Shown: piece after piece, positions 1 through 56,843 of the stretch | Layout: each line of letters begins with the position of its first letter | How positions within the stretch are numbered: the first letter of the stretch is position 1 | Assembly (NCBI GenBank): GCA_965215195.1 | Contig: CBDCDC010000002.1 | Coordinates: 4,288,001-4,352,000, forward strand | DNA from: Candidatus Latescibacterota bacterium | GTDB taxonomy: Bacteria > Latescibacterota > UBA2968 > UBA8231 | Length of the DNA stretch: 64,000 nt | Reading direction: 5' to 3' | Notes under the pieces: generated by a model | Databases searched by the model: none | The model's input: the letters and a program-made list of their open reading frames with translations, nothing else | Told to the model about the DNA's origin: nothing | Made by a program: the position numbers and the translations under genes

Positions 1-448
1 AGAGATCTACGCGACCGTCGTTGTCGTAATCTCCCGCGCAGACACCCATGCCATATCCTTCATCGCCGACGCCTGCTGCCGCGGTTATTTCTTCGAACTT
101 CCCATTGCCTCGGTTGCGATACAGGGCGTTTTGCGGTACGCGCCGCTCCAAAAAGCCCGGCAATGCGGCCCCATTGACCAAGTAGAGGTCTTCGTCGCCG
201 TCGCTGTCGTAATCGACAAAAGCCGCTCCCGAGCCATAGGTCTCCACGTAATAGAAGCGACCGCTGCCGCCGTTCACATGCACAAAGTGGATGCCGGCCG
301 CGGTCGTGGCATCGACGAATTTCGGCAGGGCCTTTCTAGCCAACTTGGGCTTGGGCGCAGTGGCTTTGGTCGCTGGAGCGGGAGTTTCATTTGAGCACCC
401 CGCGATCAGGGCCACACCCCAGCTAAAGAGAACCGCAACGATGGGCAT
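1..448 (-). CDS. CRTAC1/ASPIC-UnbV family FG-GAP repeat lipoprotein (runs off window start; absent from ORF track)
   Basis: Manual translation from ATG at 448: MPIVAVLFSWGVALIAGC (lipobox)...FVDATTAAGIHFVH...ETYGSGAAFVDYDSDGDEDLYLVNG...LYRNRGNGKFEEITAAAGVGDEGYGMGVCAGDYDNDGRVDL. Confidence 0.85.
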   Translation of the reverse strand, partial: MPIVAVLFSWGVALIAGCSNETPAPATKATAPKPKLARKALPKFVDATTAAGIHFVHVNGGSGRFYYVETYGSGAAFVDYDSDGDEDLYLVNGAALPGFLERRVPQNALYRNRGNGKFEEITAAAGVGDEGYGMGVCAGDYDNDGRVDL

Positions 449-489
449 GTACAAAGGGCACCTATCGCGGGAATCAGACTGCACAGGCG

Positions 490-3144
490 TTATTGCAATC
501 CGGCAAACATGCTCAGAAACAGCACCAGATCCGTCGTCGTCTCGTCGCGGAAATCGCGCCGCTCCCAGCGCCCGCCGATGTTGGTCATCAGGCGATAGCC
601 CAGATAGTCCGAGCGATTGGATAGCTGTGCAGCAATCACGAACTGTTCAAAATCATCTACGTATCCGGCGGGCAGCGGATCGGTGCGTGCAACCCTGTTC
701 CTAAAAATCTCGTACTCGATGCCAGACTCTAAGCGCATCGCGTTGATCAGCTCCTGCTGCCACACGAAGAAGAAAATTTCCGCCAGCTCGTCGTTCGCCA
801 GCTCGCTTTTATCCGTGGGCGAGCGCCGCTTGTAGAGTTGTTTCCACTTGGGCCACAGCACGTGTCGCCCCACCGGAATGGGCAGATCCGCCTTGGTGAT
901 CAGGGCGAAGAGCGTCTCGTCCTGCCAGTTTGTCGGCTGCTGGTCGCCGCGCTGGTGATAGATCTCGTACTTCAGCTTGGTCTCCAGATTGAACGGGGCG
1001 TATTTGCGCGTCCGCGCACTCAGAAAGGTGGTGTTGATCAGGGCATCCCGCGCGATCATGGGATCGGCAAAGGGGCGCATATCGCCCTGCGTGCGCGGAC
1101 TCTGCACCCACACAATGACGTCTTCGGGGATATTGTCCTCAACGCTGCGCAGGCCGTTGTAGAGCTGCATCTGCAAACCGTGGCGCGGCACCTCGTGCGT
1201 CAGGGTCAGCAAACCGTAGAGCGACTTGTTGCGGCGATTGCTGCTCAGCAGCCACTCGCGCATGCGACCGACCATTATGCGGCTGCCCGGCTTGATTTCA
1301 GCGCCGCCGTAGAGGTTGTAACCGCGGTGGTCGCGCGGATATGGATAGTCCGCTTCCTCGTCGTTCTCAAAGCGGTCGATCACCGTGTTGTTGTTCATGT
1401 CAGTGCCGTAGAGAAACTCCAGCGGATCGACATCGTAGCGCACAAAAGGCTCCAGATAGTCCGGCATGCCGTTGTCGTTTTGGTTGAAGTCCGACACGAG
1501 GTCGTTGTTTTCGTCGTAGCCGGGAAAGACCGCCACGTCAGCCCGCTGGATCAGCAAGCGCTCGGACGAGGAGCTGCTGAAGGTGCGCCGACGCCAGTCG
1601 GGAAAGCGGTCTTGGTCGTCGTTGTCGTCGACGAATTCATAGACGTTGTTTACAGAACTTTCGTAGTTAATGCGCCCGTTGCTGTCGGGCACGAACATAA
1701 AGGTCTGATAGCCCGGGTCCATGCTAAAAATTTCGCCATAGGCAAACCACGGGTACACATTGTGCGACGCCGTTGCGTAGTAGCCCTCGGCGCGCTCTTT
1801 TCCCAGCGCCTGATTGTAGGTGAAGTTCTGGTTGGGAAAGCGGCGGTATTTGCGGTTGATATTGTATTCGGCGCGCAAGTTAAACCCGCCGAAGAGGTCG
1901 TCGATTTCCATGGTGAGACCGGCGACTTCGTTGGCCGTCGGCAAGCCGTAGCTAAAGCGCACCACGCGCTGGTTGGAGCCGTCCTTGATATTCTTCTCCG
2001 CGCGGGCGACGGGCAAAAATACGGGCTCGCCCGTGTTGTTGACCTGCATATTGGAAGTGACTTCAACGGCGTAGTCGTTGGCCAAGACCAGCTCGATCTC
2101 GATCTTTTTGATTTCCTTGAAGTCGATGATTTCGTCTTCGTCGGGAATGGGCGTGAAGTCGCGCTCAATGTCGTAGGTAATGACGATGTTGTTGCCGCCG
2201 CTGGCCTCCCAGCGACCCTGCCGCCGAATGCCGCCGTCAACCAGCGCCCGGTCGGAAATTTCGGGATGCTCTACGCCATTTATGTACACGCGGTGCAAAA
2301 AGAGCAACGCCCCCCCTTCGCCGTCCTCGGGCGAATCGTCGGACAGACGCACCAAGAGGCGCTGCACGTTGCCCGCCTGTAGGTTGCCGCCGAGTGTGCC
2401 TTTGAGAGAGTTGTTGCCAAAGCTCTCCGAGCTGTTCCAGTGGCCGGCGTTGACGTAGGTGGTGCCCAGCTTGATAAAGTCGCCAACTTGGGCCGTGCCG
2501 CGCAGGCCGATCAGATTGGTGAAAATCGTGCGCACCGTGGCTCCTTGGTCGCGGTTGGTCGCCGTGGCTGCCAGAGCGGGGTTATCCGTGCGTGAGGCGA
2601 TTAGCGTCAGGGCGTATTTGTCGGAGAGGAAATCCCACTGCACGCCGTTGAACAGGGGTTTGGAAAAGGTCATCGGCGTCAGCGTCGTCCTCAGTTGCTC
2701 GCCCACGGTCAGGGCCATGTGGTATTGGCCTTGCGACGCCATTGAAATGACTAGGTTGTTGAACCAGTTGTTGAACTCCACGGACTTGTCGATCGCGCTG
2801 CCCGTTTCCGTGGGGTGCTGTTGCGCCCACTCGTAGATCTTCCAGCCGCGCGTGATGTAATTTCCGTAGATGTCGTAAAAGCGCTGGCCCTGCAGCACGA
2901 TGTCGGTATAGCGCTCGTAGCGATCTCTGGCGTAGTTGGTGTACTCCCAGTTTTTCCATCCGTAGATATCGTAGAGCGTCTGGGGCAGATACCATTTCCG
3001 CATAGTCGGCGCGATGGTCTGGGGCGATATCCGCACCCCACTGGTGACATAGGGGTTGAGAAAACCCGATTGCAGGCCTTCGGCTAACGCTCCACCTGCC
3101 AAAAGGCAACCCGTTAGCAGAGCACCGAAAAACTTCCGGCCCAT
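490..3144 (-). CDS. Large secreted hypothetical protein with acidic Ca-binding-like repeats; possible outer-membrane beta-barrel
   Basis: Start moved to MGRKFF (AGGGAGG upstream); signal peptide ending ALA-E; DDNDDQDRFPD, DENNDLVSDFNQNDNGMPD and DMNNNTVID motifs; amphipathic C-terminal strands. Confidence 0.75.
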   Translation of the reverse strand: MGRKFFGALLTGCLLAGGALAEGLQSGFLNPYVTSGVRISPQTIAPTMRKWYLPQTLYDIYGWKNWEYTNYARDRYERYTDIVLQGQRFYDIYGNYITRGWKIYEWAQQHPTETGSAIDKSVEFNNWFNNLVISMASQGQYHMALTVGEQLRTTLTPMTFSKPLFNGVQWDFLSDKYALTLIASRTDNPALAATATNRDQGATVRTIFTNLIGLRGTAQVGDFIKLGTTYVNAGHWNSSESFGNNSLKGTLGGNLQAGNVQRLLVRLSDDSPEDGEGGALLFLHRVYINGVEHPEISDRALVDGGIRRQGRWEASGGNNIVITYDIERDFTPIPDEDEIIDFKEIKKIEIELVLANDYAVEVTSNMQVNNTGEPVFLPVARAEKNIKDGSNQRVVRFSYGLPTANEVAGLTMEIDDLFGGFNLRAEYNINRKYRRFPNQNFTYNQALGKERAEGYYATASHNVYPWFAYGEIFSMDPGYQTFMFVPDSNGRINYESSVNNVYEFVDDNDDQDRFPDWRRRTFSSSSSERLLIQRADVAVFPGYDENNDLVSDFNQNDNGMPDYLEPFVRYDVDPLEFLYGTDMNNNTVIDRFENDEEADYPYPRDHRGYNLYGGAEIKPGSRIMVGRMREWLLSSNRRNKSLYGLLTLTHEVPRHGLQMQLYNGLRSVEDNIPEDVIVWVQSPRTQGDMRPFADPMIARDALINTTFLSARTRKYAPFNLETKLKYEIYHQRGDQQPTNWQDETLFALITKADLPIPVGRHVLWPKWKQLYKRRSPTDKSELANDELAEIFFFVWQQELINAMRLESGIEYEIFRNRVARTDPLPAGYVDDFEQFVIAAQLSNRSDYLGYRLMTNIGGRWERRDFRDETTTDLVLFLSMFAGLQ

Positions 3145-3185
3145 TTGTTCCCTCCCTTTTTTACTGCTGCACAACGCGTACTGGT

Positions 3186-5504
3186 TTAGTAGGCTAAACT
3201 AATGATGCGATATACCGACTGGTCGCCAGAGTCGGCTGCCATCTCGATGTGGCAGATGTACACACCCGGCGGCAAAACCGCTCCCGCCTCGTCCCGGCCA
3301 TCCCACGCGAAACCCGCGCTGCTCTGGTCGAGCGTCCGCAGGAGCGATCCGGTCAGATCGTAGATCGCCACGTTGGGATGGCCCTCAACTTGGACTACGA
3401 TAAAGTTGATTTGCGCTTCGTCGTTTACTCCATCGCCGTTGGGCGTAACGACCGGCGTCACCTGCACATGGCGCAGCAAACTCCCACCGGCTACATCGGG
3501 CACAAAAACGATCATCGAGCGCGGCTCTAAGGGTTCGACGCCTTGGCGCACATCCTGCTGGCTGTCCCCTGCCCAGGCCTCAAAGAGGGTGGCGTTGGTC
3601 GTTACCTGCGCAGTAAACTGCACTTCCACCGAGTCCTCCCGCACCCGCTCTGGCAGTCCGACTCGCAGCAGCCCGTCCGCTAGTTCAACTTCCTTCGGCT
3701 GTACGCGCTGGCCGCCGACTCGGACGCCAACCTCTTGCACAGCCCCCGGCACTTGGATAAAGACCTCGTCAAAGCCTTGGTCGTTGCGCGCCGAGGTCGG
3801 TTGCAGCAGATATGTAAAGCGTTGCAGCGAATCGAGGCCGACCTCGCGTGGCAATATGCGTGCGGCAATGCCGCCGCTAACGAGCGGATCGTCGAATGCT
3901 AAGGTCAGGGAGCGCAGCACCGGCGTTAGCTGCGGGTCGTCGTTGGCTAGGCGAACCTGTAGTTGCAAGAATTGTCTGGGCGTAGGCGAGAGGAATGCCT
4001 CTGCGGGAAAATCATAGGGCTGGCTCCAGCCGCTCCAATCCGGCCCTTTGAGCTTGAGGGTGTCGATGCGCCCGCGCACGCTCTTGGGCAGCTTACCAAA
4101 ACGGGCCGAATCCAGTTCGGTGCCGTTTTTGTGGTAATACTTCTTCTGGAGCTCAAAGGTATTGCCCGTCTGTGAGCGAATTTCGATCTGCGTACCGGCG
4201 GGTAGATCGGCGTCCCACGACAGCTTGCGCACGCTCTTCATGGAGCCTAGGTCGATGAAATCCGACACCATTTCCGTCGCCGCTACGTGCCCCTCGCCGT
4301 AGAGGATGTATTCAAAAATCGACTGGCGGATCTGCAAGCGCGTTGGAATGCCGCTGCGGTGGTAGAAGATGTAGCGGATTTTCCGCAGTGGGAATGCAAA
4401 GTGATACGACTGTTGGTTGGGGAATCTATCGTTGAATACGTCGCTGAGTTCCTCGTAGTCGAAATTGCTGCGAATGCGGTCGCTGGTCAGGCCGCTGGCC
4501 GGCGCGCCATCCGAGGTGGTGAGGATAAATAGCTTGGCCCCGTGCCCGTGGGAACCACGAGACCCCTCTCCGGCTCCGACAGTCAGGTCTAGGTGGGAAA
4601 GGTGATCCACCCAGAACGTGGTGCCCAGATCCCATTCGAACCAATCGCCGTCTTCGACGTAGGTCCTGAGATTGCCCTCCTTGGCTTGGTCGCCACCGAC
4701 GGCAACTCGCCAGTTGGTATTGACATCCCCGTCGAAGATCGTACCGATTTTGTCTGCGCTGCGCCCCGCTCGCACCGACCCGCCCCGTTCCACTGTACCT
4801 AGGGCGAGATTATCTCCGAGGGCATCCACTTCGATCTCAGCCAGTGCCGCGCCCGGATTCTTTTCCGTGGGTACTAGGCGCACGTGGTGGACGAGGTTAA
4901 AATTTAGCGTATCCCGCTCTATGAGATGTTCTCCGCTGGCCAGACCGAACTCAATTCGCTTCAGATCGACCTCAAAAACGCGCTCCACATTGGGCGTGGT
5001 GGTGACGGCGACCGGGTGGTAGGTTACGCCAAAGCGCGTATCGACACCGTTGCTTATGTACGTCGTGAAATTGCGAAAGGGCTTGGCGTCGGGTGTGTCC
5101 GGAAAGACAAAGCGCAACTTGTGCGCCAATACCGGCCGGCCGAGGTCGATTTCGATCCACCAATCGTCCAGCGGATCGTCGGCGGATGGCTGCCAGTAGG
5201 TCGATGGGTCTTGGTCAATGATATTAGCCGCATCTTGGGCGTTTGAATGGACTTGGCGGATGCCACCAAAAACCTGTTTCTTGCCCTCGCTGTGGGAAAA
5301 CTCTGCGGCATTGGCCACGGCGTTTATATTGCGGCGCATCCACGCTAGGCTGATGCTGCCGTCGTCGGCAATTTCCAGCGTACCTTGGGGAATGGTCCAC
5401 GTCTGCCAGTCCGCCGGGCTGCTCAGGCGCAGTTCGTCGGCATGGGCACCTGCTGTACACAGGGTGGCGACGAGCAAAATGCGAATCGCAGCGAATTTTC
5501 TCAT
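3186..5504 (-). CDS. Secreted protein, discoidin/F5-8-like N-terminal domain, C-terminal TPNGDGxND/FlgD-Ig (T9SS CTD-like) domain
   Basis: Signal peptide AHA-D; NIIDQDPSTYW...WWIEIDLG; C-term VTPNGDGVND...IYDLTG...WDGRD..G..LPPGVY...ISLAY. Confidence 0.8.
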   Translation of the reverse strand: MRKFAAIRILLVATLCTAGAHADELRLSSPADWQTWTIPQGTLEIADDGSISLAWMRRNINAVANAAEFSHSEGKKQVFGGIRQVHSNAQDAANIIDQDPSTYWQPSADDPLDDWWIEIDLGRPVLAHKLRFVFPDTPDAKPFRNFTTYISNGVDTRFGVTYHPVAVTTTPNVERVFEVDLKRIEFGLASGEHLIERDTLNFNLVHHVRLVPTEKNPGAALAEIEVDALGDNLALGTVERGGSVRAGRSADKIGTIFDGDVNTNWRVAVGGDQAKEGNLRTYVEDGDWFEWDLGTTFWVDHLSHLDLTVGAGEGSRGSHGHGAKLFILTTSDGAPASGLTSDRIRSNFDYEELSDVFNDRFPNQQSYHFAFPLRKIRYIFYHRSGIPTRLQIRQSIFEYILYGEGHVAATEMVSDFIDLGSMKSVRKLSWDADLPAGTQIEIRSQTGNTFELQKKYYHKNGTELDSARFGKLPKSVRGRIDTLKLKGPDWSGWSQPYDFPAEAFLSPTPRQFLQLQVRLANDDPQLTPVLRSLTLAFDDPLVSGGIAARILPREVGLDSLQRFTYLLQPTSARNDQGFDEVFIQVPGAVQEVGVRVGGQRVQPKEVELADGLLRVGLPERVREDSVEVQFTAQVTTNATLFEAWAGDSQQDVRQGVEPLEPRSMIVFVPDVAGGSLLRHVQVTPVVTPNGDGVNDEAQINFIVVQVEGHPNVAIYDLTGSLLRTLDQSSAGFAWDGRDEAGAVLPPGVYICHIEMAADSGDQSVYRIISLAY

Positions 5505-5522
5505 GGCACATCCTCGAAAGCG

Positions 5523-7472
5523 TTAGTAGGCCACCGCAATGGTGCGCGTGCGCGTGAAATCACCCGCGTCCGTCTCGACGGCAAGTCGGGCGAGGTATAG
5601 GCCCGGCGCCACGCGCCCCGTCCCCTCTCCCCGCCCATCCCACTCTTCGACATAACGCCCTTCGCTCCTCGAATCGGCCACTAGTGTGCGCACTTTGCGT
5701 CCGCGCAAATCGCAGATTGCAAAGACCACCCGGCTGGCCTGTACGCCCAGCAGTGAATAGGCCAGTTCAAGCGCGTCGTTGCGCCCGTCGCCATTCGGCG
5801 TCACTACGGCCGATCCCACGTCTAATGCGCTCAGCACCTCTAACCCCTCGCTCGGTGCCAGCACCTCGATGGAATTGGTCGATACCTCCGCGTTGGCATC
5901 TCCGGGATCGATAGATTGGGGCTGTCCTGCTCCCCCGACGACAAACACCTCGCCCTGAAACAGGGCGTTGAAACTGAAGATGCCCGTTTTGAACAGCAGC
6001 CGCAGGGGCCTGTTGTCTGCGGCCGCGATGCGATTGGACGGAAAATAGACGATCAGCTCGCTTTGTCTCTCCGCAATGCTGTCGGGCGCCACAGGGACCA
6101 AGGGGTCGCCCATTTCCAGTCCTATAAACTGGACGCGGGCCGGGGTGTGCAGCCTCAAGGCGTCAAAACCCGACTTGGTCGCCGACTCAAAGTCGGCCCG
6201 CACGTCAAAAGTGAAAATGCGCTCCTCGCCCAAGGGCACTTCCGTCTTGCGCCCGAGCGGCTGGGGTTCGTCCTGTAAGGCGACCTCCCCGACGACCGCA
6301 TCGACCAGCAGAGGCGAGTATTCTACGACCAGCGAATCCATCTGACCGTAGGTAAACAAATCCTCGCTCTTCATTGTGAAGTTGATTTTGAGATACTGCC
6401 GATTATCCGGCGAAAGGATCTCTAGGCCCTCGCCGCCGGACGCTTCTTGCGGCACCGACCAGAAGCTCCAGTTGTCCACGTCGGGCCGCTCCGGCCCCCG
6501 GGCTCTAGGGCGCACATAATCGTCGCGCGGCGCCTTATCCCATTCGGCAAAACTCACTTCGCGCTCGGTCCTCAGCTCGGTGTATATGCTGTAAATCTGT
6601 GGCGTATCGTCCCGGCCGGTCTGCGTTTCTAGCGAAAAGGAGATGGGATTTGCTGGCAAAAGTTCGGGTTCGCTGTCTATGCTCTCTTTGGAAAACCCGT
6701 TGAAATAGGGTATGGCCCGCCCGAAGTTGACCGGCTCGCCGATGTCGATCACCTTGGAGATGTATTGCGATTTTTGCACAAAACCCTCGCCGTAAAACTC
6801 CACCTCGGCGATGACGCCCAGTTGCGGGAAGTTTAAGAAAATGAACTGCAGGGGCTGGGTGGGAAAACGGGCATTGGCGATGCGCGTGGTCTGGTTGAGA
6901 TTCTGCTCCAGCAAAAGGTCAAACTGCCCTTGCTTAAAGCGCTCGCCATCAATGGCAGCCCAAACTTCATACAGCTTGGGATAGGCATTTTTGAGCGGCA
7001 AACCCGGCGTGATCCGCTTGCGGTCGTCGGTCTGCGTGCGCCCTTCGGCTGGAGCAAAAAAGCGGATGCGATTGATGGGCAATTCCCAACCTAGGTTGTA
7101 GTAATAAAAGCCGGAGACAATGGCTACTGACCGGGTCGTGTCGCCATCTACTGTATATATAAACCCATTATCTCCGAGGACCTCGGGCTGGCCGGGAATG
7201 AGGCGTGCGGCGTGCGGCCCAGCCCGTTCTCCCCCCCAGGGGTTGCCGAAGACATCCGCGCGCGAGCTGCCCTTCTTCTCGCCCAGCGCGATATTGACCG
7301 CTGGGTCCAATTCGTAGGGTTGCAGACTGCCGCCCACGACCCACATGCCGCCCATCAACTCGGCTAGTTCTTCCCAGCCGTTATCTCCTGTCCCCAGCAC
7401 CCATCGCTCTACCTGTGCCTCTGCAAAGCGAGGGGCCAATAGCAAAAGAGCTAGTGCCACTAGGTGCTTCAT
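5523..7472 (-). CDS. Secreted protein with C-terminal TPNGDGxND/FlgD-Ig domain (paralog 2)
   Basis: Signal peptide AEA-Q; VTPNGDGRND...DLRGRKVR...WDGR...APGLY...IAVAY. Confidence 0.8.
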   Translation of the reverse strand: MKHLVALALLLLAPRFAEAQVERWVLGTGDNGWEELAELMGGMWVVGGSLQPYELDPAVNIALGEKKGSSRADVFGNPWGGERAGPHAARLIPGQPEVLGDNGFIYTVDGDTTRSVAIVSGFYYYNLGWELPINRIRFFAPAEGRTQTDDRKRITPGLPLKNAYPKLYEVWAAIDGERFKQGQFDLLLEQNLNQTTRIANARFPTQPLQFIFLNFPQLGVIAEVEFYGEGFVQKSQYISKVIDIGEPVNFGRAIPYFNGFSKESIDSEPELLPANPISFSLETQTGRDDTPQIYSIYTELRTEREVSFAEWDKAPRDDYVRPRARGPERPDVDNWSFWSVPQEASGGEGLEILSPDNRQYLKINFTMKSEDLFTYGQMDSLVVEYSPLLVDAVVGEVALQDEPQPLGRKTEVPLGEERIFTFDVRADFESATKSGFDALRLHTPARVQFIGLEMGDPLVPVAPDSIAERQSELIVYFPSNRIAAADNRPLRLLFKTGIFSFNALFQGEVFVVGGAGQPQSIDPGDANAEVSTNSIEVLAPSEGLEVLSALDVGSAVVTPNGDGRNDALELAYSLLGVQASRVVFAICDLRGRKVRTLVADSRSEGRYVEEWDGRGEGTGRVAPGLYLARLAVETDAGDFTRTRTIAVAY

Positions 7473-7487
7473 GCTCAGTTTTCCGCG

Positions 7488-9380
7488 TTAATAGGCTACG
7501 TGGATTAGGCGCATGCGGTTGACTTCGTCGGCAGCCGCCTCTATCGAGGCTCTTGCGATATAGGTCCCCGGTGGCACCACAGCGCCGGCATTGTTCGTTC
7601 CGTCCCAGTGCCACTGGGTATAACGTCCGGCGGTTAGGGCATCGGAGAGCACGTTTTTTATTAAGCGACCCGAAAGATCGTATATGAGCAGTTCGGCCGC
7701 GACGGGCTGCACCAAGTGGATGAGCACAAAAGAGAAGATGGACGAATCGTTTATGCCATCGCCATTGGGCGTTATAGCCGGCGGAGAAACGGAAAAGGAC
7801 TGCAGTACGCTTTCGCCGCTGGCGAGGAAAATTACCTCCTGCGAATCCGTGCCCACTTCCCGCGTCGCGTCGCCTTCGGCAATGCGCTGGGGAAGGCTGC
7901 CGGTCGTATCTAGAAGTTGTCCCGTAAACTGGGTGGCAAAGAGCAGGGCTTGCGAGCGAAACGTAATCCGCAGACGCATGTCTTCTCCGGTGCTAATGCG
8001 CCGGGACGGAAAGTAAACGCGCAAACCCGTATCGTCCACGCGCACGCTATCCGGCTGTATTTCCGTTAATTCGTCCCCCATTTCGAGCTTGAGAAACTCG
8101 GGCTGTATCAGCGTTGAGATGCGCACGCCGTCAAAGCCCGTTCCCGCGCCCAAGTCGGCCTTTATGTCGTAGGTAAAAACCGTATCCCGACCGGCCGGAA
8201 CGGACGCGCGCCCACCGGCCGGAAAGGGATCGTCCAATAGAGCCACTTCGCTCCATGCCCGCGCGGCCAGCGGCGGCGTATGCACGATGGCTAGGCTATC
8301 GACCTGCATGCTCGCGGAGGTATTGCCCTCAAAGCGCAGGCGCACTTGAAAAAAATCGCGCGGCCCCGGCAGATCCAGCGGAATGGAGAACGCGCCGCTG
8401 GAGTCGGCGACGAGCGGCTCCGTCCAGGAGGACCAGTGCGTGGCGTCCGGGCGGATGCTGCCCTTGAGGACTGACGGTAGGTCGTCGTACTCTTCTTTGC
8501 TGACCAGCACTTCCGACTGGGTCTCTACGTCGGCGATCTGGTAGTAGTCGAGAGGCGTTTGGTCCGTGCCGTTGCGCATCTGCACGATCACCCGCACTTG
8601 CTCGTCGGCACCCGCGCTGCTTTCGCCTTCCTCGGACAGCGAAACTTTGCGCGCGCGAAAAGTCAATGCGCCGTAGTTGACGGGCTGGGCAAACTGGATG
8701 AGCTGGGTTTCGTAGAGCCCACGCGGCACAAAGCCTTCGCCGTGGACCTCGATTTCCGCCAGCTCAAAGGGGTTGGGTGAAAGCACTCTGAGTTGAATAA
8801 AGCGCACCAGTTGCGTTGGGAAGCGCGCATCCACTCTTGGATCGCGGTTGATCGTCACTTGGCGCACGGCCTCGTAAACGGGCGAGTCATTGGCGTCGAA
8901 AGTGCGCCCGTCATTGAGTGATATTTCGTAGCCAGCGACGAACTCATCCTCTCCTGCACGCGGGTAAAATACAATCTGGCTAACTGGGAACGAAGCCCCG
9001 AGATCTAAGAAAAAAATGCGTCCGCGCTGATTGACCCCCACTTCCTTAAAGCGATTTTCCGTGCTGGTCGTGCCATCTCCGTCCACCAGAACCTCAGACC
9101 CTGCAATGCCCCGCGCCGAATTGTTCCACACCCGTCCGTTGCCCTCGGCGATAAAGCTGCTGGGTGCGCCGACCCCCCAGACGATGAACTGAGTTATATT
9201 CTGATCGAGTGAAAAGCTGGCCGGCCCCAAGACTTGTCCTGCGCCTACTACTACCCCCGCCATAGTCTGCGCCGGCTCGGCCCAGTCTTGCCCGCCCAAG
9301 CCGACCCCCCAGACATCGGCTCGCAGGTCCGCCGCCCCAATACAGAACGGCAGGATTAGCCCGACCAAGGAAGCCCTCAT
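7488..9380 (-). CDS. Secreted protein with C-terminal TPNGDGxND/FlgD-Ig domain (paralog 3)
   Basis: Signal peptide; ITPNGDGIND...IYDLSGRLIK...WDGTNNAG..VPPGTY...IHVAY. Confidence 0.8.
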   Translation of the reverse strand: MRASLVGLILPFCIGAADLRADVWGVGLGGQDWAEPAQTMAGVVVGAGQVLGPASFSLDQNITQFIVWGVGAPSSFIAEGNGRVWNNSARGIAGSEVLVDGDGTTSTENRFKEVGVNQRGRIFFLDLGASFPVSQIVFYPRAGEDEFVAGYEISLNDGRTFDANDSPVYEAVRQVTINRDPRVDARFPTQLVRFIQLRVLSPNPFELAEIEVHGEGFVPRGLYETQLIQFAQPVNYGALTFRARKVSLSEEGESSAGADEQVRVIVQMRNGTDQTPLDYYQIADVETQSEVLVSKEEYDDLPSVLKGSIRPDATHWSSWTEPLVADSSGAFSIPLDLPGPRDFFQVRLRFEGNTSASMQVDSLAIVHTPPLAARAWSEVALLDDPFPAGGRASVPAGRDTVFTYDIKADLGAGTGFDGVRISTLIQPEFLKLEMGDELTEIQPDSVRVDDTGLRVYFPSRRISTGEDMRLRITFRSQALLFATQFTGQLLDTTGSLPQRIAEGDATREVGTDSQEVIFLASGESVLQSFSVSPPAITPNGDGINDSSIFSFVLIHLVQPVAAELLIYDLSGRLIKNVLSDALTAGRYTQWHWDGTNNAGAVVPPGTYIARASIEAAADEVNRMRLIHVAY

Positions 9381-10111
9381 TGCCTATTCACTAGTTCGGG
9401 CGGTGGCTGAAACCCCTTAAACACCTCGCGCTGAAAGTGAAAGGTCAGATCCTTGGTCTGCACGGGCTCGTTGCGGTAATTGTAGCGCAGTGCAATGCCT
9501 CGGACGTGGATGGAAAACTCCGTCACGTCCGGGGCTAGGCTCGGAAAAACGACAAAACCCTCTGCCTCTTGGCCGCTGAAGATGATCTGCTCCTGAAACA
9601 TAGTGCGCTTGAGCACGTCCTCGCGCTCGTTAAAGCGCCGGTATTCGTTGCCGGCATATCCCTGAATAAACGAATAGTAGTATTCTAGGAGCTGCAGTGG
9701 TTCTAAGGGCGCGTACTTGCGATACCCATCCTTTGAAACCAGCTCGATCTCGAGGGGATCGACGCCGACTTTGGGGTAGGCGTAGTTTTTAACTTTTAGC
9801 AGCCACACGCTGTGTTTGGGCGGCGTCCACTCTTCGCCCATGCGCTTCCAGTCGCCGAAAGTGTAGGGATTGGTCGATACGGGCCCCTGGGTGGAGTGCT
9901 GGGGGAATTTGCGGTTCAATTCGGCGTCGGTCATAGGGCGCAGACCGATCTCCAGCCGCTCGAACGAATAGGTGATCAAGCCATCGTCTTTAATCACCAT
10001 ATCGGCCTCCTGTTGCCCTTGCGGGGCTGGCTGAATTGGCCCGTCGAAATAACGCCCACATCCTGCCAACATCGCTAGGGAACAAAGCCACGAACCACAC
10101 CGCACCATCAT
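9377..10111 (-). CDS. Hypothetical lipoprotein
   Basis: Start MMVRCG after GAGG; lipobox LAGC; stop overlaps next start (ATGA). Confidence 0.75.
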   Translation of the reverse strand: MMVRCGSWLCSLAMLAGCGRYFDGPIQPAPQGQQEADMVIKDDGLITYSFERLEIGLRPMTDAELNRKFPQHSTQGPVSTNPYTFGDWKRMGEEWTPPKHSVWLLKVKNYAYPKVGVDPLEIELVSKDGYRKYAPLEPLQLLEYYYSFIQGYAGNEYRRFNEREDVLKRTMFQEQIIFSGQEAEGFVVFPSLAPDVTEFSIHVRGIALRYNYRNEPVQTKDLTFHFQREVFKGFQPPPELVNRQ

Positions 10112-10136
10112 GTTAACCTCGGGAAGTATAATTGTA

Positions 10137-10164
10137 TTGGGCGGCGGCATCTGCCGCCGCCCAA
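10137..10164. terminator. GC-rich hairpin downstream of the 10188-11114 gene (terminator or mRNA stabiliser)
   Basis: ttgggcggcggca-tc-tgccgccgcccaa inverted repeat; no strong U-tract. Confidence 0.6.
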
Positions 10165-10187
10165 CCTGTGGTCAAAGGACCGTTCAG

Positions 10188-11114
10188 TTAGTCGTTGAAG
10201 GTCGCTTTGATTCTTGCCCAGCTCTCGGATTCCACGGCGGTGCCTCCGCCATCGGCGCGATCGTACTCGTCCGCGCCGAGCAGCGTGTATTCCGAGCAGA
10301 CATCGCAGTTGCCCGAAGCGCCGTCCTCGCCGGTTGTTGCTAGCTGGTGCGTACGGCGATCTTCGGGATTATCCGCTTCGTTTAGCTGATAGGTCAGGCG
10401 GATGATCTGCCCGGCCTCGTTGTCGTGGCGGATGCTGTTGTCCGCACCGTCCAACGACGCAAAATCCCAAAGGGGAATGCTGTATTCGTAGTTGACCGTG
10501 ACGTTGGTCGAACCGGTGGTTGCTCCCGGAGGATTGGTCGTCACTCTGGACTCGGCGAACTCGTCCATCCAGTGGATTTCCTCGACCACCTGCCAGCGCA
10601 ACCACCACGAGCCATCGCCGCCATAGGGCGTTTCATACACGCCGGGAACCGGCAGGTGCATGGTAAACTGCTGCCCCTCGGCGCGTGTGCCCGACTCGCC
10701 GTCGCCGTCGTGCGGACCGCCGCTGGCATTGGCGTCGGTGATGATCTCGAGATCGTCGTCGCGCCAGCCGTCGTCAAAGACGTCCGAGGTGACGACCAGC
10801 GTGTCGTCGGTGGCGCGCACAAATCCGTAGAGCTTGTTGTCGCGGTCCGTGCCCGTCCACGCCGTCATGATGGCCACGTCGAGGTCGCTCTTGTCCAGCA
10901 CTTCGGCCTTCTGGATTTCGTACATCTCGTCGGGACCAACGGTGAAATTGGCGTCGAACCACGCCCAGTCGCCATCGTCGCCATCAATGGTGATGGTGAC
11001 ATCAGCAGGCACCTCTAAGGCAAAGTAGCCAATGCCGTTGGCATTGGACTGGCCGTAGGCGAAGCTCGCCAAGGCCACGGACAACACTGCTGCTATGAGT
11101 GCGTTCTTGTGCAT
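10188..11114 (-). CDS. Secreted acidic CBM9/DOMON-like sugar-binding protein with C-terminal WxxIK motif
   Basis: Signal peptide AYG-Q; ITIDGDDGDW, LYGFVRATDD, WRDDDLEI, YEYSIPLWD; ends GGGTAVESESWARIKATFND; SD TAAGGAG. Confidence 0.7.
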   Translation of the reverse strand: MHKNALIAAVLSVALASFAYGQSNANGIGYFALEVPADVTITIDGDDGDWAWFDANFTVGPDEMYEIQKAEVLDKSDLDVAIMTAWTGTDRDNKLYGFVRATDDTLVVTSDVFDDGWRDDDLEIITDANASGGPHDGDGESGTRAEGQQFTMHLPVPGVYETPYGGDGSWWLRWQVVEEIHWMDEFAESRVTTNPPGATTGSTNVTVNYEYSIPLWDFASLDGADNSIRHDNEAGQIIRLTYQLNEADNPEDRRTHQLATTGEDGASGNCDVCSEYTLLGADEYDRADGGGTAVESESWARIKATFND

Positions 11115-11124
11115 ATTTTTCTCC

Positions 11125-11187
11125 TTATTTGGATAGGGTAGAGATGTTGCTCTTCTCTGCTTCTGCAGTTGCGAATGCTGTATCCAT
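11125..11187 (-). promoter_or_regulatory. Possible 20-aa leader ORF preceded by a perfect SD (AAGGAGGTGA, 11188-11197)
   Basis: MDTAFATAEAEKSNISTLSK*; its TAA overlaps the downstream SD TAAGGAG; SD-ATG spacing unusually short. Confidence 0.3.
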
Positions 11188-11240
11188 TCACCTCCTTCCG
11201 CATTTAGAGTAGGGCGATCTGGGCTCGTCTATGGGTAGCG

Positions 11241-13004
11241 CTACTGCTCTAGGTTAGACAGGGCCTGTTCGTCAATAACTATCTCAGTCCTGTACTTATG
11301 CTTCAACTCATCTAGATAGCTATCAAAGTATTCTTCAATCGCGTGCCGATGGGCGTAGCGCAATTGACGCCATATTCTGGACTGCACCTTGGGGGCAGCA
11401 AAAGAGAGGGTCTTTTCCGGGCGCAGTGCCAGCACTTTGAGCACGAGGTACCCGGTCATAGCGCCGCTCAACTCAATGGGGAGCGGTCCCTTGATGCCGC
11501 CAACCGGCATATCCCGCACGGCTTGGATCATGGTGGCCATAGCGCCTTGGGCTGTCGCCGTGTCAGCCAGCGCGAAGTTAAATACGTCGAACTGACGTAC
11601 GCGCCCCTTAAATGCCGGATACGTGCGCATGATCTCGGCCATATCCTCGCCGGCGCGTACGCGCCGGGCGATGGCGTGCGAAGCCGTTTCCGAATCGACC
11701 AATGCACCGGCAAAAAATGTGCGCACCGGCAGGGTGAATTCCTCTGTTAGGTCCCGATATAGAATGCGCTGCTGTTCCTCTGTGACGAAGTGCGCTTCTA
11801 CTTCCATGCGCCGCAGCATCTCGATCATGGCCTCTTCGCGCGTATCCCGCACGAACTGAAGCACGGCCTCCTCGCGGTCCAACCCTTGTTGCTGGGCCAG
11901 CAGCGGTAGCAGGATTTTGCGCAACGCTTCGTGCTGGGCAAATTCGACCACCGCGCTGCTGTCTATGGCGTGGGGGCGACGCTTGGGTTCGGCCTCCTCT
12001 ACCAAAGCCACATACGCGTTCAGGTCAATGCGCCCTCCGCTATGGCGCAGCAGGATGCGCCCGTGGTCTCCTGCCTCCAGCACGGGCACACCGCCTTCGG
12101 CCAATCGCCCCCGTTGCAGCAAAACGCCCAATACCTGTGCATCTACTGAAAGACCAAAGTGCGCTTTCTGGTCGGCTAAGTATTTGGACCAGCGCTCTTT
12201 TTTTTGCTGCTTTTCCAGCGCTTGGCGCAGCGTTTTCTTTTGGCTCGCAAAACTGACGTAGCGCTCTTCATCGGCCCTGATCAGGTGGTACGTTCCCTGC
12301 GAGTCGCGGTACGGTTCGGACACCTCGCCGATCGGCAGGCGAAAAAGCTCGGCGACAAACCCGCTGTGCTGTGCTTCTTCCTCCTGCCAAAACCCCGTGT
12401 CTCCACCCTTGGCCGCCGATGTGCGATCGAGGGACTGCTCGCGCGCCAGTAGCGCAAAATCGGCACCTTGCCGCAACTGCTCCTGCACGGCCCGAGCTTC
12501 TTCGAGGCTGCCTACCTGAATGTGACTCGCCCGCAGCTCCCGCTTTTTGTGCAATCCGCTCTGGTGGAAATGCGACCGGAGTTCCTCTTCCGCTATGGAA
12601 ACGTCTCCGGTGACTTCCTCGTACAGACGCTCGACCAGCCTCCGGTCGTGCGCCTGTTGTACGCTTGCGACCACGTCGGGATGCTGATCCAAACCCTTCG
12701 CCCGGGCCTCTAAGACCAGCATCTTGCGCTCGATAAAAGGCTGTAGCATTTCCCGCGCATTGCCCGCTGTAAAGCGGCGCATCTTGCGCTCGGCGCGGAG
12801 CAAGTCATCTACCAGAATGACTTCGCTCCCGACCCTGGCCAGCACGACCGAATTCACAGCCCAGGCACCGCCGGCCATCAGCCCGACAATCGCCATCGCG
12901 GCCCAGCAGGTAGCCATCTGTCCAGCGCAAACCAGTGCTCTCTTTGCCGCTGCTAACTCAATGCTCATAAAGCAGTTATGTTCCATTGCAACCTGTGAAA
13001 GCAT
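11241..13004 (-). CDS. Periplasmic peptidyl-prolyl isomerase (PpiC/parvulin, SurA/PrsA-like); true start probably downstream
   Basis: RASHIQV...GADFALLAREQSLD.TSAAKGGDTG...GEVSEP...YHLI rotamase motif; degenerate second domain. Confidence 0.8.
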   Translation of the reverse strand: MLSQVAMEHNCFMSIELAAAKRALVCAGQMATCWAAMAIVGLMAGGAWAVNSVVLARVGSEVILVDDLLRAERKMRRFTAGNAREMLQPFIERKMLVLEARAKGLDQHPDVVASVQQAHDRRLVERLYEEVTGDVSIAEEELRSHFHQSGLHKKRELRASHIQVGSLEEARAVQEQLRQGADFALLAREQSLDRTSAAKGGDTGFWQEEEAQHSGFVAELFRLPIGEVSEPYRDSQGTYHLIRADEERYVSFASQKKTLRQALEKQQKKERWSKYLADQKAHFGLSVDAQVLGVLLQRGRLAEGGVPVLEAGDHGRILLRHSGGRIDLNAYVALVEEAEPKRRPHAIDSSAVVEFAQHEALRKILLPLLAQQQGLDREEAVLQFVRDTREEAMIEMLRRMEVEAHFVTEEQQRILYRDLTEEFTLPVRTFFAGALVDSETASHAIARRVRAGEDMAEIMRTYPAFKGRVRQFDVFNFALADTATAQGAMATMIQAVRDMPVGGIKGPLPIELSGAMTGYLVLKVLALRPEKTLSFAAPKVQSRIWRQLRYAHRHAIEEYFDSYLDELKHKYRTEIVIDEQALSNLEQ

Positions 13005-13144
13005 GAATAGCTTAAAAAAGACCCTGTGTCAAGTGGCCTCTTCCACGTCGATATTCATGGCCGGTGCTCGGCGACTCCCATCTTCCAGCACCTATTTTAG
13101 ACGCCAACGGGCCTAGCATCTAACCCGATCTTTTTTGCCGCGCC

Positions 13145-14713
13145 CTAAGTGTGTGATTGTTCTAAGGCGGCGTACAGGCCGATAAGCTCGTCGTACGCGG
13201 CTACGGCCTTTGGCTCCGGTTCGATGGTCGATCCGGCGACCGGCTGGGCGAATGGCTCGACAACTTCCGCCCACGAAGGCGCGTGGCCGGCTGTGGATTG
13301 GTGGGCGTGGGCGGCGCGCAAGGCCGCGCCTAGAGCCGCCGAATTGGTCGTCTCGAAGCGGTGGACCGGGCAGTTGTGGACATTGGCGAAGACGCGCAGG
13401 ATTGCGGCGTTGGCCGACGCGCCGCCGGTGACGTAGAGCGAGGAAATTTCTACGCCCATCCAGCGCGCGTGGATGCGCGAGGAAAGGGCTTGGGCCTCGA
13501 TGACGGCGCGGACATTGGCCGGCGCGTCCTCGGGGTCGAGGTTGGCGCGGACGACGTTGGGCCGGGGGACTTTGGGGACGATTTCCGGGGCGAAATAAGG
13601 GAGCATGAGTGCGCCGTTGTTGCCCGGCGGCGTGGTGTGCAAGGCTTGGGTAAACTGCTGCCAGTTCATGCCGTATTGGTCGCGCACGGCCTCGCGGGCC
13701 AAGCTGCCGTTGAGATAGCAAGTCAGGGCCATGTAGTGGGTGCCGTCGGGCGAGGCAAAGACCGCGCCCTCGCCGGCCGCAGAAGTGCGCGGCTGGTCCA
13801 TGCAGGCGAACAGGGTGTCCGAAGTGCCCAAGCTCAGGGCGACTTGGCCCGGGGCGACGAGTCCGAGGCCGATTAGGCTACACGGATTGTCGCCGGAAAA
13901 AGGCAACACGAGGCAGTCTCCTGCAAAGCCGTAGCGATCCACGTAATAGGGGCTGATAGGGCCGACGGGCTGGCCGGAGGGAGCGATGGGCAGCAGTTTG
14001 GCGGCTAGGCCGGGGGCGGTGGCGTCGAGCGCGAGCGCACTCCACTGGCGCGCGGCAATATCCATCATGTTGGTGCCGCTGCCGTCGCCGGGGTCAACGC
14101 CGACGAGCCGTCCCGCGAGCAGGCTGGCGATGTATGAGCTGACCAAGCCGATGTACGCAGTGTCGGCGTACGCAGCGGGTTCGGTCTGGTAAAACTTGCG
14201 GATCTGCGGGCCGCTGAAGCGCTCAAAGGCCGCGTTGCCCGTGAGCGCGAGCAGGCTTTCGCGCCCGCCGAGGCCCGCTTCGATCTCGGCGCATTGCGAG
14301 GCCGTGGAAGTGTCCATCCAGATGGGAGAGGTCGGGCGGGAGAAGATGGCGGCGAGCTGGTCTTTGAGCGGCTGACCGGGCGACAGACGCGCCAAGGCCG
14401 GGCCGGCGCGGGCGTTGAGATAGACGGTGCCGTGCTGCTGGCCGCTGCCGGCGACAGCCCGCACTGCGCTGAGATCGTGCCCTTGGTCGGCGAGCGTCTG
14501 CAGGAGCAGGTCCAGTGCTTCGGCCCACATCAGAGGTGCGCTGTGGATCGCGCCCGCGCCGAGATCGAAGACGCCGTTGACGACCTCATAAGCGGCTTTG
14601 AAGTGCTCGTCGAAGTTGATGGACGCTTCGGCGACGATGGTGCGCTGGTCTGCGTTGATGAGCAGGCCGGTGATGGACTGGGTGCTAGCGTCAATGCCCA
14701 AATAGTTGCTCAT
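13145..14713 (-). CDS. xylB: D-xylulokinase (FGGY family, eukaryote-like subtype)
   Basis: YLGIDASTQS, GSGQQHGTVY, SPIWMDTST, FERFSGPQIRK, GDNP, SLGTSDT, VTGGASAN. Confidence 0.85.
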   Translation of the reverse strand: MSNYLGIDASTQSITGLLINADQRTIVAEASINFDEHFKAAYEVVNGVFDLGAGAIHSAPLMWAEALDLLLQTLADQGHDLSAVRAVAGSGQQHGTVYLNARAGPALARLSPGQPLKDQLAAIFSRPTSPIWMDTSTASQCAEIEAGLGGRESLLALTGNAAFERFSGPQIRKFYQTEPAAYADTAYIGLVSSYIASLLAGRLVGVDPGDGSGTNMMDIAARQWSALALDATAPGLAAKLLPIAPSGQPVGPISPYYVDRYGFAGDCLVLPFSGDNPCSLIGLGLVAPGQVALSLGTSDTLFACMDQPRTSAAGEGAVFASPDGTHYMALTCYLNGSLAREAVRDQYGMNWQQFTQALHTTPPGNNGALMLPYFAPEIVPKVPRPNVVRANLDPEDAPANVRAVIEAQALSSRIHARWMGVEISSLYVTGGASANAAILRVFANVHNCPVHRFETTNSAALGAALRAAHAHQSTAGHAPSWAEVVEPFAQPVAGSTIEPEPKAVAAYDELIGLYAALEQSHT

Positions 14714-14787
14714 AAAAATGACCTTCTTTATTGTTTTTTTTATTCAGGACTACAACGTAACCAATTTGCCAAAGGGGAAGCAACGCA

Positions 14788-25410: not shown

Positions 25411-25851
25411 ATGCTGGGCAACAAAAAAAACAGAAGTGCTTCCACGTCTAGCAGCGGCCAGGCACTCAATACGATTATCGGCCGCGGTAGCTGCTTTGAA
25501 GGCAAGCTGACGGTCGATAACAGCGTCAGAATAGACGGCGTATTCAAGGGCGAACTGGCCTGCACTGGGGAGCTGACGATCAGCCAGTCGGGCGAGGCCG
25601 AGGCCGATTTGCAGTGCAAAGACGCGTACATCGACGGCGTCGTGAGTGGCACTGTGCGCGCCGATAAGGTGCGGTTGGATACGCAGTCGCGCTTTACCGG
25701 CGAAGTGTACACCGACTCGTTCACGGTCTCCGAGGGCGCGATCTTCCACGGCTCTTGTTCGATGGAAAACCACGAGAAAAAGAGCGAGTCGCCCCCAAGC
25801 GGCGAAGAGGCAAAGCCCCCCTCGCCCAAACCCCAAGCCAAAAAGCAATAG
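25411..25851 (+). CDS. Bactofilin (polymer-forming cytoskeletal protein)
   Basis: NTIIGRGSCFEGKL, VRIDGVFKGEL, IDGVVSGTV, VSEGAIFHGSCSM. Confidence 0.92.
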   Translation: MLGNKKNRSASTSSSGQALNTIIGRGSCFEGKLTVDNSVRIDGVFKGELACTGELTISQSGEAEADLQCKDAYIDGVVSGTVRADKVRLDTQSRFTGEVYTDSFTVSEGAIFHGSCSMENHEKKSESPPSGEEAKPPSPKPQAKKQ

Positions 25852-25874
25852 CGCTTTCCCATCTCGTTTTGCGC

Positions 25875-25907
25875 GAAAAATCCATCTGCCCCGCGGATGG
25901 ATTTTTC
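25875..25907. terminator. Intrinsic terminator after bactofilin
   Basis: aaaaatccatc...gatggattttt. Confidence 0.65.
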
Positions 25908-25916
25908 TTATTGCCG

Positions 25917-37444: not shown

Positions 37445-37446
37445 GT

Positions 37447-56804: not shown

Positions 56805-56843
56805 CGGCGAAGCAGTAGAGTTTTCACAGAAATTATAGCATCC

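Follow-up and report, generated by a model that had tools for sequence, protein, structure and literature searches.

The window analyzed here is a 64,000-nucleotide stretch of a Candidatus Latescibacterota genome (assembly GCA_965215195.1, contig CBDCDC010000002.1), and its first 13,004 nucleotides carry a cluster of envelope genes that we designate A to H. All eight open reading frames (ORFs) are co-oriented and tightly packed on the minus strand and are transcribed in the order H G F E D C B A. Two features recur below: the secretion system of type IX (T9SS) and the C-terminal domain (CTD) that marks its cargo.

A, 2-484, minus strand: first 161 aa of an FG-GAP/ASPIC-UnbV (CRTAC1-like) lipoprotein, cut by the window edge.
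B, 490-3174, minus strand: 894-aa ORF, probable start 3144 (884 aa); predicted outer-membrane β-barrel.
C, 3186-5504, minus strand: 772 aa, secreted; two discoidin/lectin-like domains in the N-terminal half and a T9SS-type CTD at ~681-772.
D, 5523-7472, minus strand: 649 aa; paralog of E and of the C-terminal part of C; C-terminal T9SS-type CTD.
E, 7488-9380, minus strand: 630 aa; paralog of D; C-terminal T9SS-type CTD.
F, 9377-10150, minus strand: 257-aa ORF; lipoprotein, probable start Met13/14, lipidated Cys31.
G, 10188-11114, minus strand: 308 aa; secreted CBM9-like protein with a conserved C-terminal tail.
H, 11241-13004, minus strand: 587 aa; PrsA/SurA/PpiD-like parvulin with an N-terminal hydrophobic segment; start codon uncertain.

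From A to H, the genes are separated by gaps of 5, 11, 18 and 15 nt, a 4-nt overlap (E/F) and gaps of 37 and 126 nt. By inspection of the translations, without a signal-peptide predictor, B, C, D, E and G have signal-peptide-like N-termini, F and A have lipoboxes and H has an N-terminal hydrophobic segment. A preliminary description of this DNA had listed eight co-oriented, tightly spaced envelope genes in this order, each with a signal peptide, lipobox or hydrophobic leader, and the ORF coordinates, gaps and translations agree with it on both points. Its statement that no TonB-dependent receptor, SusD or glycoside hydrolase is encoded among the eight was upheld by Pfam and NCBIfam scans, in which secretion-core families were also absent from the eight genes. 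The count of eight holds for the observed set but not for the module, which continues beyond the left window edge; orthologous loci supply the remainder of A and a tetratricopeptide repeat (TPR) lipoprotein. Directly upstream of H on the same strand is a xylulokinase gene (13145-14713), and the remainder of the window holds housekeeping and envelope genes at ~60% G+C. A scan for sigma-70 promoters and terminators gave no enrichment above shuffled expectation, and the sole match in an Rfam-type RNA search of 1-15000 was a sub-threshold JUMPstart inside the xylulokinase gene.

The cluster recurs widely. Reference genomes encode at least 563 relatives of B; with one genome scanned per species, the best 80 of these were kept as loci (cited by L numbers). 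All 80 come from metagenome-assembled genomes (MAGs), whose titles read Latescibacterota or Latescibacteria for 67 of them and Gemmatimonadetes, Gemmatimonadota or Gemmatimonadaceae for the other 13. Among 8000 scored candidates from a set of 5.8 billion proteins, 928 were B relatives, nearly all 868-893 aa long, and those with names are called 'hypothetical'. Gene neighborhoods were compared by tblastn with the eight window proteins in the 49 of 80 loci that have full 10-kb flanks, 41 of which are divergent (B 46-62% identical). C, D and E were all found in 41/41 divergent loci, and in 35 of these each of the three types is represented by a single gene when best hits are resolved per interval, a procedure used because C, D and E cross-match. 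Lipoprotein F was present in 38 of the 41, G in 34, the TPR lipoprotein in 34, parvulin H in 31 (24-42% identity) and A in 19. The count for G is an underestimate, as two tail-bearing G-like ORFs fell under the BLAST threshold, and missing partners are partly accounted for by insertions that push genes past the flank and by sequence divergence. Four gene orders surround B: H G F E D C B A; G F E D C B, with H and A on the other strand; D E C B G F H; and A H F D G divergent from B E C. B to H, A and the off-window TPR lipoprotein thus recur as one gene set. The preliminary description had proposed conserved synteny of B homologs as a check, and the outcome supports it: partners recur across the divergent loci in all four orders, and B homologs, far from being scattered, sit beside C, D and E in every one. 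Nor did the set map onto any characterized system, or a description of the module turn up, in Pfam, NCBIfam, PDB sequences or the open-access literature (subscription journals and preprint supplements lay outside this scope).

Several copies can occupy one genome. At least five loci lie on chromosome OZ244897.1 (L009, L019, L041, L049 and L057), three other chromosomes carry at least four each, and the B tree resolves into ~7 orthogroups. Across 24 non-redundant loci, the pairwise identities of the partners rise and fall with those of B (Spearman r of 0.82 for C, 0.86 for D, 0.80 for E and 0.78 for G), less closely for F (0.60), H (0.55) and A (0.43); 0-5 of 500 label shuffles equaled these values. 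These identities show that the cassettes duplicated and diverged as units, a pattern of co-inheritance as distinct from physical contact. Median identity between cassettes is 0.48 for B and 0.45 for F, versus 0.34 for C, 0.33 for D, 0.34 for E and 0.28 for G, so that B and F are the slowest-evolving members and C, D, E and G the fastest. Because the set recurs in paralogous loci, its grouping is more than chance, and we are highly confident that the cluster is a co-functional module. Treating the locus as a single set, as the preliminary description did, was sound; what it missed was the multiplicity of copies per genome, the extension past the window and the presence of PorX in the host.

Two loci also have mobile or selfish insertions within their cassettes. 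In L041, a HEPN/nucleotidyltransferase pair lies between F and D (5784-6609, minus strand). In L070, an IS4/5-family transposase gene (13832-14770, minus strand) comes just after B, and a phage-capsid-family ORF occupies 225-1247.

Protein B matches no Pfam or NCBIfam family and no PDB sequence, and none of 33 close relatives matches any Pfam family. An AlphaFold2 model built from 33 sequences (predicted local distance difference test (pLDDT), 64.9; predicted TM-score (pTM), 0.61) arranges residues 141-892 as ~30 strands in hairpins; the N-terminal region 22-140, which includes a conserved aromatic-rich part (~56-140), and most of an insert (516-604) are unmodeled. The top Foldseek matches in the PDB are all large outer-membrane barrels, namely SlpA (8ae1, 4.3e-7), MtrB (6.1e-7), FimD/PapC (4e-5) and LptD (1.5e-4), with TM-scores of ~0.2 (0.21 for 8ae1); these matches support the class and no particular relative. 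Given this model, B is very likely an outer-membrane β-barrel of ~30 strands, which fits the earlier suggestion that the ~880-aa protein acts as a channel or scaffold. Its description as an acidic protein of 880 aa stood as to size, counted from the probable start at 3144, and the acidity is mild overall (pI 5.17); an acidic insert at 486-615 has D, E or N at 34% of its 130 residues and contains four DxD/NxD/N motifs. Most invariant columns of the B family sit in this insert, which by its motifs presumably resembles calcium-binding loops. Counting 15 strands back from the C terminus, with short turns at 628-631, 810-813 and 857-860, would place the insert on the outer or lumenal side.

The barrel superfamily extends well beyond the close relatives of B. 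A profile search of 1.84 billion representatives returned 957 clusters (50% identity) at E ≤ 1e-3, 306 of them at E ≤ 1e-30. Distant branches (870-1050 aa) are full-length homologs (hhalign probability 100, E 6.2e-95, 782 columns), and the named ones, every one annotated 'hypothetical', belong to MAGs of KSB1, Zixibacteria, Marinimicrobia, Ignavibacteriales and 'Bacteroidetes'. A PDB sequence search started from a distant branch gave nothing useful. Many bear a precomputed SlpA_C (PF21620) label; when 12 distant representatives were scanned with SlpA_C, three matched, all below the cutoff (best 30.2 bits versus 35). The nearest named Atlas cluster to B is DUF6029 at 0.89, which we treat as a lead only. 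In one distant branch of ~980 aa (P0162-like; P0300, P0310 and P0329), 15 of 120 listed clusters share a longest contig of 5,870,491 bp, which suggests one genome with at least 15 paralogs.

The three proteins preceding B in transcription order are paralogs with T9SS-type CTDs, as previously proposed, on the basis of CHU_C and FlgD_ig matches and mutual alignment. C contains F5/8 type C, CHU_C (33.5 bits, cutoff 27) and FlgD_ig domains, and its PDB profile matches are FlgD (3osv, 2.2e-6) and, at 213-307, the F-type lectin FBP32 (3cqo, 2.4e-4). D and E end in FlgD_ig/CHU_C modules that score more weakly than those of C; the two share ~30% identity along their whole length, and C aligns to both over its last ~400 residues. 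The same domains mark the families, with CHU_C counted at E ≤ 0.01: C-type proteins match CHU_C in 23/23, F5_F8_type_C in 21/23 and FlgD_ig in 14/23 cases, and D/E-type proteins match FlgD_ig in 37/38, CHU_C in 33/38 and F5_F8_type_C in 10/38. By NCBIfam, 32 of the 38 D/E proteins resemble the PorU C-terminal region. C, D and E thus each carry the CTD by which T9SS cargo is recognized. The CTD type is ambiguous between A and B, as TIGR04131 and TIGR04183 each match 10 of the 38 D/E proteins, all below the cutoffs.

Lipoprotein F has no Pfam, NCBIfam or PDB sequence family, and its lipobox Cys31 is invariant in 32/32 aligned homologs. Its AlphaFold2 model (pLDDT, 88.9; pTM, 0.82) is a β-sandwich with a helical insertion; Foldseek gives a single match within E ≤ 0.001, to YjhA, a lipoprotein-like protein of Bacillus (3cfu, 8.8e-4, TMt 0.54), followed by weaker matches to ApaG, MPT63 and YcdA, and the Atlas gives DUF4352 as a lead at only 0.79. 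We regard F as a predicted β-sandwich lipoprotein and the second conserved core protein. A role for F as an LptE-like plug was ruled out, as the fold is a β-sandwich and no LptE is among the Foldseek matches shown.

G is very acidic (pI 4.05). The label 'CBM9-like' given to it earlier appears to hold at the family level, where 17 of 30 members match CBM9_1 (best E 1.8e-6) and the family profile matches the CBM9 of Thermotoga Xyn10A (1i82, E = 2.1e-4, ~100 residues), but the window copy itself has no Pfam match. The WxxIK tail, also part of that account, proved real and specific to G: its consensus is TAVExSSWGxIKxxF, and it was found in 50 of 54 G-family ORFs and elsewhere in 14 of ~4000 locus ORFs, most of them seemingly further G-like proteins. 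The tail was accordingly rejected as a general sorting tag. Five loci in the divergent arrangement (L034, L039, L043, L078 and L079; ~18.9-21.8 kb) each have a pair of G-type genes: the first is found upstream of B on the opposite strand, the second follows C, and this second copy has a different, longer C terminus without the WGxIK tail. A strong Shine-Dalgarno-like motif, RAAGGRGGK, precedes 25 of 51 G genes in 24 loci (window 11189-11198, minus strand) at an almost constant 74-101 nt from the start, mostly 82-85, and is kept across cassettes with G proteins that are only 25-30% identical. The region has no Rfam match, and its window copy folds modestly better than shuffles (z -2.2). A conserved small ORF upstream of G was rejected, since start codons and frame vary among close orthologs; the element may be a translational control element in the 5' untranslated region.

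H scores above the Pfam cutoffs for Rotamase, Rotamase_2 (49.2 bits, cutoff 27) and Rotamase_3, in keeping with its earlier identification as a parvulin peptidyl-prolyl isomerase. Its PDB matches are PrsA (4wo7, 4.6e-15), SurA (1m5y, 2.4e-9) and PpiD (2kgj, 2.6e-7). The NCBIfam models PRK00059, PrsA, PpiD and SurA match far below their cutoffs, and H is therefore none of the named orthologs; it is a cassette-specific paralog of the PrsA/SurA/PpiD-like, periplasmic parvulin chaperone type. That the set has its own chaperone is borne out by co-occurrence, through the parvulin paralog of 31 of the 41 divergent loci. A has a lipobox and an FG-GAP_3 match (49.1 bits, cutoff 26.9), as expected for the CRTAC1-like lipoprotein described earlier; UnbV_ASPIC was seen, together with FG-GAP_3, only in an A-like fragment in L057, and the window copy is truncated. 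Full-length A orthologs measure 542-597 aa, orthologs follow B in L001-L011, and the full-length one at L009:12720-14462 has no NCBIfam match. The TPR lipoprotein (400-512 aa, lipoboxes read from translations) lies past A in window-type cassettes and is present in 50 of the 80 loci.

Genes related to the T9SS lie in the same window, 13-19 kb from the cluster. A full-length PorX, the T9SS regulator, is encoded at 27721-29307 (plus strand; NF052313, 640.6 bits, cutoff 300), preceded by a histidine kinase gene (25755-27674, plus strand), with which it makes up a T9SS regulatory pair, and followed by tsaE. After tsaE come a gene for a 534-aa FadL/PorV/PorQ-like protein (30302-31906, plus strand; 53.8 bits, under the cutoff of 90) and one for a 254-aa protein of no family. 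The earlier statement that no core secretion component is recognizable therefore holds for the eight genes and is amended for the window. No gld or spr motility genes were found in the window or the scanned flanks, and no open-access paper was found that connects Latescibacter* with the T9SS. Bacteroidota keep CTD proteins of type B on PorP/SprF barrels to which they are genetically linked, with SprB-SprF and PG1035-PorP as cognate pairs, according to two reports (PMC9143113; PMC12618676). Elsewhere in the window, a gene at 17902-19713 (minus strand) encodes a 603-aa TolB-like PD40 propeller protein with a T9SS type A sorting/FlgD_ig-like module (TIGR04183, 35.1 bits, cutoff 23) at residues 86-166, near the N terminus and not the C terminus.

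Past the TPR lipoprotein, orthologous loci carry a DHDPS-family gene and then an ATP-binding cassette (ABC) importer of the SBP_bac_1 type; SBP_bac_1 with two permeases follows the window-type cassette in seven loci. A polytopic DUF6785/DUF6784 protein (~640 aa, 9-11 hydrophobic segments) is encoded in 23 of the 80 loci and in 19 of the 41 divergent loci with full flanks, and in L041 its gene is flanked immediately by B and E. Neither the PDB nor NCBIfam gave a match for this protein, and the open-access literature yielded no paper naming DUF6785. The 55 flank ORFs scanned, taken from 11 loci, include no glycoside hydrolase, lyase, sulfatase, TonB/ExbBD, SusC/D or PorP/SprF family, and the TonB_dep_Rec, Plug and CarboxypepD_reg families were absent from both these ORFs and A to H.

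Our preferred interpretation, advanced tentatively, is that the module may be a cell-surface capture platform. Capture is favored over a coat because complete paralogous cassettes are numerous, the parts facing the ligand evolve faster and membrane transporters are linked to the cassettes. The ligand would be a glycan, as the lectin- and CBM-like domains suggest, and the module proteins may form one physical complex. In such a scheme, B would be inserted in the outer membrane with the help of chaperone H and the TPR lipoprotein, and F would join it as a fixed partner, B and F together making the core. C, D and E would cross the outer membrane through the host T9SS, form a variable face and be held at the surface on B, by analogy with PorP/SprF barrels and their linked CTD cargo, and G would use its conserved C-terminal tail for docking. 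An extracellular glycan or glycoconjugate would then be bound by the discoidin/lectin-like and CBM9-like domains, and each paralogous cassette could serve a different ligand, as polysaccharide utilization loci (PULs) do in Bacteroidota. That the module should also be an uptake conduit is a more doubtful proposition: here, the ligand, whole or in parts, would enter the periplasm through the wide barrel B independently of TonB, and the neighboring ABC importers or the DUF6785/6784 membrane protein would take it up. The DUF6785/6784 and SBP_bac_1 importer genes near the cassettes and the xylulokinase gene next to H count in its favor. More speculative still is the idea that B-type barrels represent an unrecognized outer-membrane machine of the FCB (Fibrobacteres-Chlorobi-Bacteroidetes) superphylum. 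This would be a hetero-oligomeric, TonB-independent capture-and-entry gate for macromolecular nutrients, in which a calcium-stabilized ~30-strand barrel, a T9SS-delivered trio, a lipoprotein and a tail-docked CBM9-like protein work with one SurA-like chaperone per paralog, as a functional counterpart of SusC/D for phyla without Sus systems and a second, PorP-independent means of keeping T9SS cargo on the cell surface.

Several observations weigh against this interpretation. PULs normally carry degradative enzymes together with sensors or regulators. The 55 flank ORFs of the 11 loci contain no glycoside hydrolase, lyase, sulfatase, sensor or regulator, which weakens the case for capture, and neither TonB/ExbBD nor a plug domain was found. 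The transporters adjoining the cassettes vary and may be a coincidence in transporter-rich genomes, and A lies within 10 kb in only 19 of the 41 loci. For the T9SS, PorX alone points to such a system in the host, the type A and type B models each hit 10 of the 38 D/E proteins, always below the cutoffs, the cassettes contain no PorP/SprF-family gene and none of the searches run showed homology of B to PorP. The model of B is of moderate quality (pLDDT 64.9, TM ~0.2, with the N-terminal 110 residues and the insert unmodeled), and its strand number and loop side are estimates.

The alternative that best withstands the evidence, although we consider it unlikely, is structural: B would be an abundant SlpA-like barrel that scaffolds a coat or surface layer of C, D, E and G, with the cassettes as alternative or layered coats and no role in uptake. 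SlpA is the best Foldseek match of B (8ae1, 4.3e-7), distant B relatives have sub-threshold or precomputed SlpA_C (PF21620) matches, and the B family is homologous to the SlpA_C-labeled relatives (hhalign probability 100, E 6.2e-95). The SlpA barrel of 30 strands has pore insertions with metal sites and a bound β-sandwich accessory protein, and may anchor an S-layer, as set out in its description (PMC9388160). A constant complement of one C, one D and one E gene (35/41) would suit a defined lattice, and no catabolic enzymes were seen in the cassettes. Against this, B has no SLH domain or coiled coil, the defining traits of SlpA-type connectors, and 0/33 close relatives match SlpA_C. At least five cassettes per genome, with their own chaperones and fast-evolving lectin-like domains, fit ligand diversification better, and the polytopic membrane protein of some cassettes has no obvious role in a coat.

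Rather less likely is that C, D and E are T9SS-delivered adhesins on B, in the manner of SprB-SprF, binding particles, host matrix or cells with a different specificity for each cassette. CTD proteins are genetically linked to an outer-membrane barrel here, as in the SprB-SprF and PG1035-PorP precedents cited above. Adhesion proteins commonly contain discoidin and FG-GAP/ASPIC domains. However, C, D and E, at 630-772 aa, are modest proteins without the long arrays of repeats that known gliding adhesins have, the gld/spr motility genes are missing from the window and scanned flanks, and the linked membrane transporters and the wide barrel are left unexplained. A role in export or assembly appears improbable. 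It would make B a usher-like or LptD-like translocon that, together with H and independently of the T9SS, exports G and possibly C, D, E or a polymer other than protein. Among the Foldseek matches of B are FimD/PapC ushers and LptD (4e-5 to 2e-4), the cassette carries its own periplasmic chaperone, some cassettes include a polytopic inner-membrane protein, and G, with a Sec signal and a conserved strand-like C-terminal tail but no CTD, needs some route to the surface. Yet no usher, PapD-like, LptD/OstA or LptE family match was obtained, F is a β-sandwich and not LptE-like, C, D and E already bear T9SS-type CTDs in a host with PorX, and the cassettes showed no ATPase, glycosyltransferase or polymerase. 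Finally, a chance run of unrelated envelope genes with no common function has a negligible probability: the promoter and terminator scan, with nothing above shuffled expectation, is compatible with it, but the same set, in 41 divergent loci, in four orders and co-diverging, already contradicts it.

Other genes in the window were noted in passing. A gene at 34277-37753 (minus strand) encodes a 1158-aa protein that joins Peptidase_MA_2 and PD40/TolB-like propeller repeats to a C-terminal Omp85-type barrel, an unusual protease-Omp85 fusion, and a second, small Omp85-family gene (38373-39476) adjoins it. At 55890-57962 (plus strand) and 58299-58748 (minus strand), an Mrr-type restriction endonuclease lies beside an N6/N4 DNA methylase, and there is a lone BMC-domain shell protein with no microcompartment locus visible in the window.

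We know of no cultured, genetically tractable member of the Latescibacterota, nor of any account of how these bacteria interact with their environment. They carry a module of 9-10 genes, the two most conserved proteins of which belong to no described family, in at least five complete paralogous copies per genome, and it may represent a novel bacterial mode of surface capture. The superfamily of 957 barrel clusters, with its 'hypothetical' relatives, points to a major unstudied area of envelope biology in the FCB group. Should the module prove to capture and admit glycans, it would offer an alternative to the Sus paradigm that works without TonB; should B retain T9SS cargo, the known routes of T9SS surface decoration would be widened beyond Bacteroidota.

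When set against known systems, the module does not qualify as a Sus PUL, a PorP/SprF anchor, an SlpA-type connector, LptDE, MtrCAB or a chaperone-usher system. LptD-LptE, MtrB-MtrA/C and chaperone-usher systems resemble it in placing a large barrel beside a small lipoprotein or periplasmic chaperone, and their barrels are among the Foldseek matches of B (6e-7 to 2e-4). In contrast to LptDE, no OstA/LptD family match was found and the small lipoprotein, F, is a β-sandwich; in contrast to chaperone-usher systems, there are no usher, PapD or pilin Pfam families, and H is a parvulin. The MtrCAB comparison fails on heme, as A to H contain no CxxCH motifs, and a role for B as an MtrB-like cytochrome sheath was rejected on the same count.

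To our knowledge, Deinococcus radiodurans SlpA (8ae1; SlpA_C PF21620) is not part of a comparable gene cassette. It is nonetheless the best fold match, with a number of strands (30) similar to that modeled for B and weak SlpA_C matches among distant B relatives, and both proteins have acidic, probably metal-binding insertions (for SlpA, PMC9388160). B differs in having no SLH or other Pfam match and no long helix after the signal peptide in its model; B and 33/33 close relatives fail the SlpA_C model, and the profiles of the B family and of the distant B branches miss SlpA by sequence.

In Pfam DUF5916, a CBM9-like domain is fused to a large uncharacterized barrel. The pairing of a CBM9-like module with a big barrel is shared here, in the separate genes G and B, whereas B and its relatives gave no DUF5916 or other Pfam match; we regard this family as a lead only.

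The resemblance to Sus-like PULs is broader. Both combine lipoproteins and a barrel in the outer membrane with surface proteins whose domains resemble carbohydrate-binding ones, both occur as many paralogous cassettes per genome and some of the cassettes adjoin inner-membrane importers. Unlike a Sus-like PUL, the module has no TonB-dependent receptor, plug, SusD, carbohydrate-active enzyme or hybrid sensor, and its surface proteins carry T9SS CTDs instead of lipid anchors, so that the earlier view of it as distinct from SusC/D loci holds. With the PorP/SprF systems of T9SS type B cargo, it shares CTD proteins encoded beside an outer-membrane barrel, cognate sets duplicated within a genome and an associated TPR-containing envelope protein, which in that system is PorE, with a TPR domain (PMC12773672); PorX is present in the host. 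The differences are that B is ~880 aa long with ~30 predicted strands and no PorP/SprF match, that three fixed cargo paralogs accompany each barrel along with the fixed partners F, G, H and A, and that the CTDs are not clearly type B. By analogy, then, the module reads as if the cargo anchoring of PorP/SprF had been crossed with capture of the Sus-like kind.

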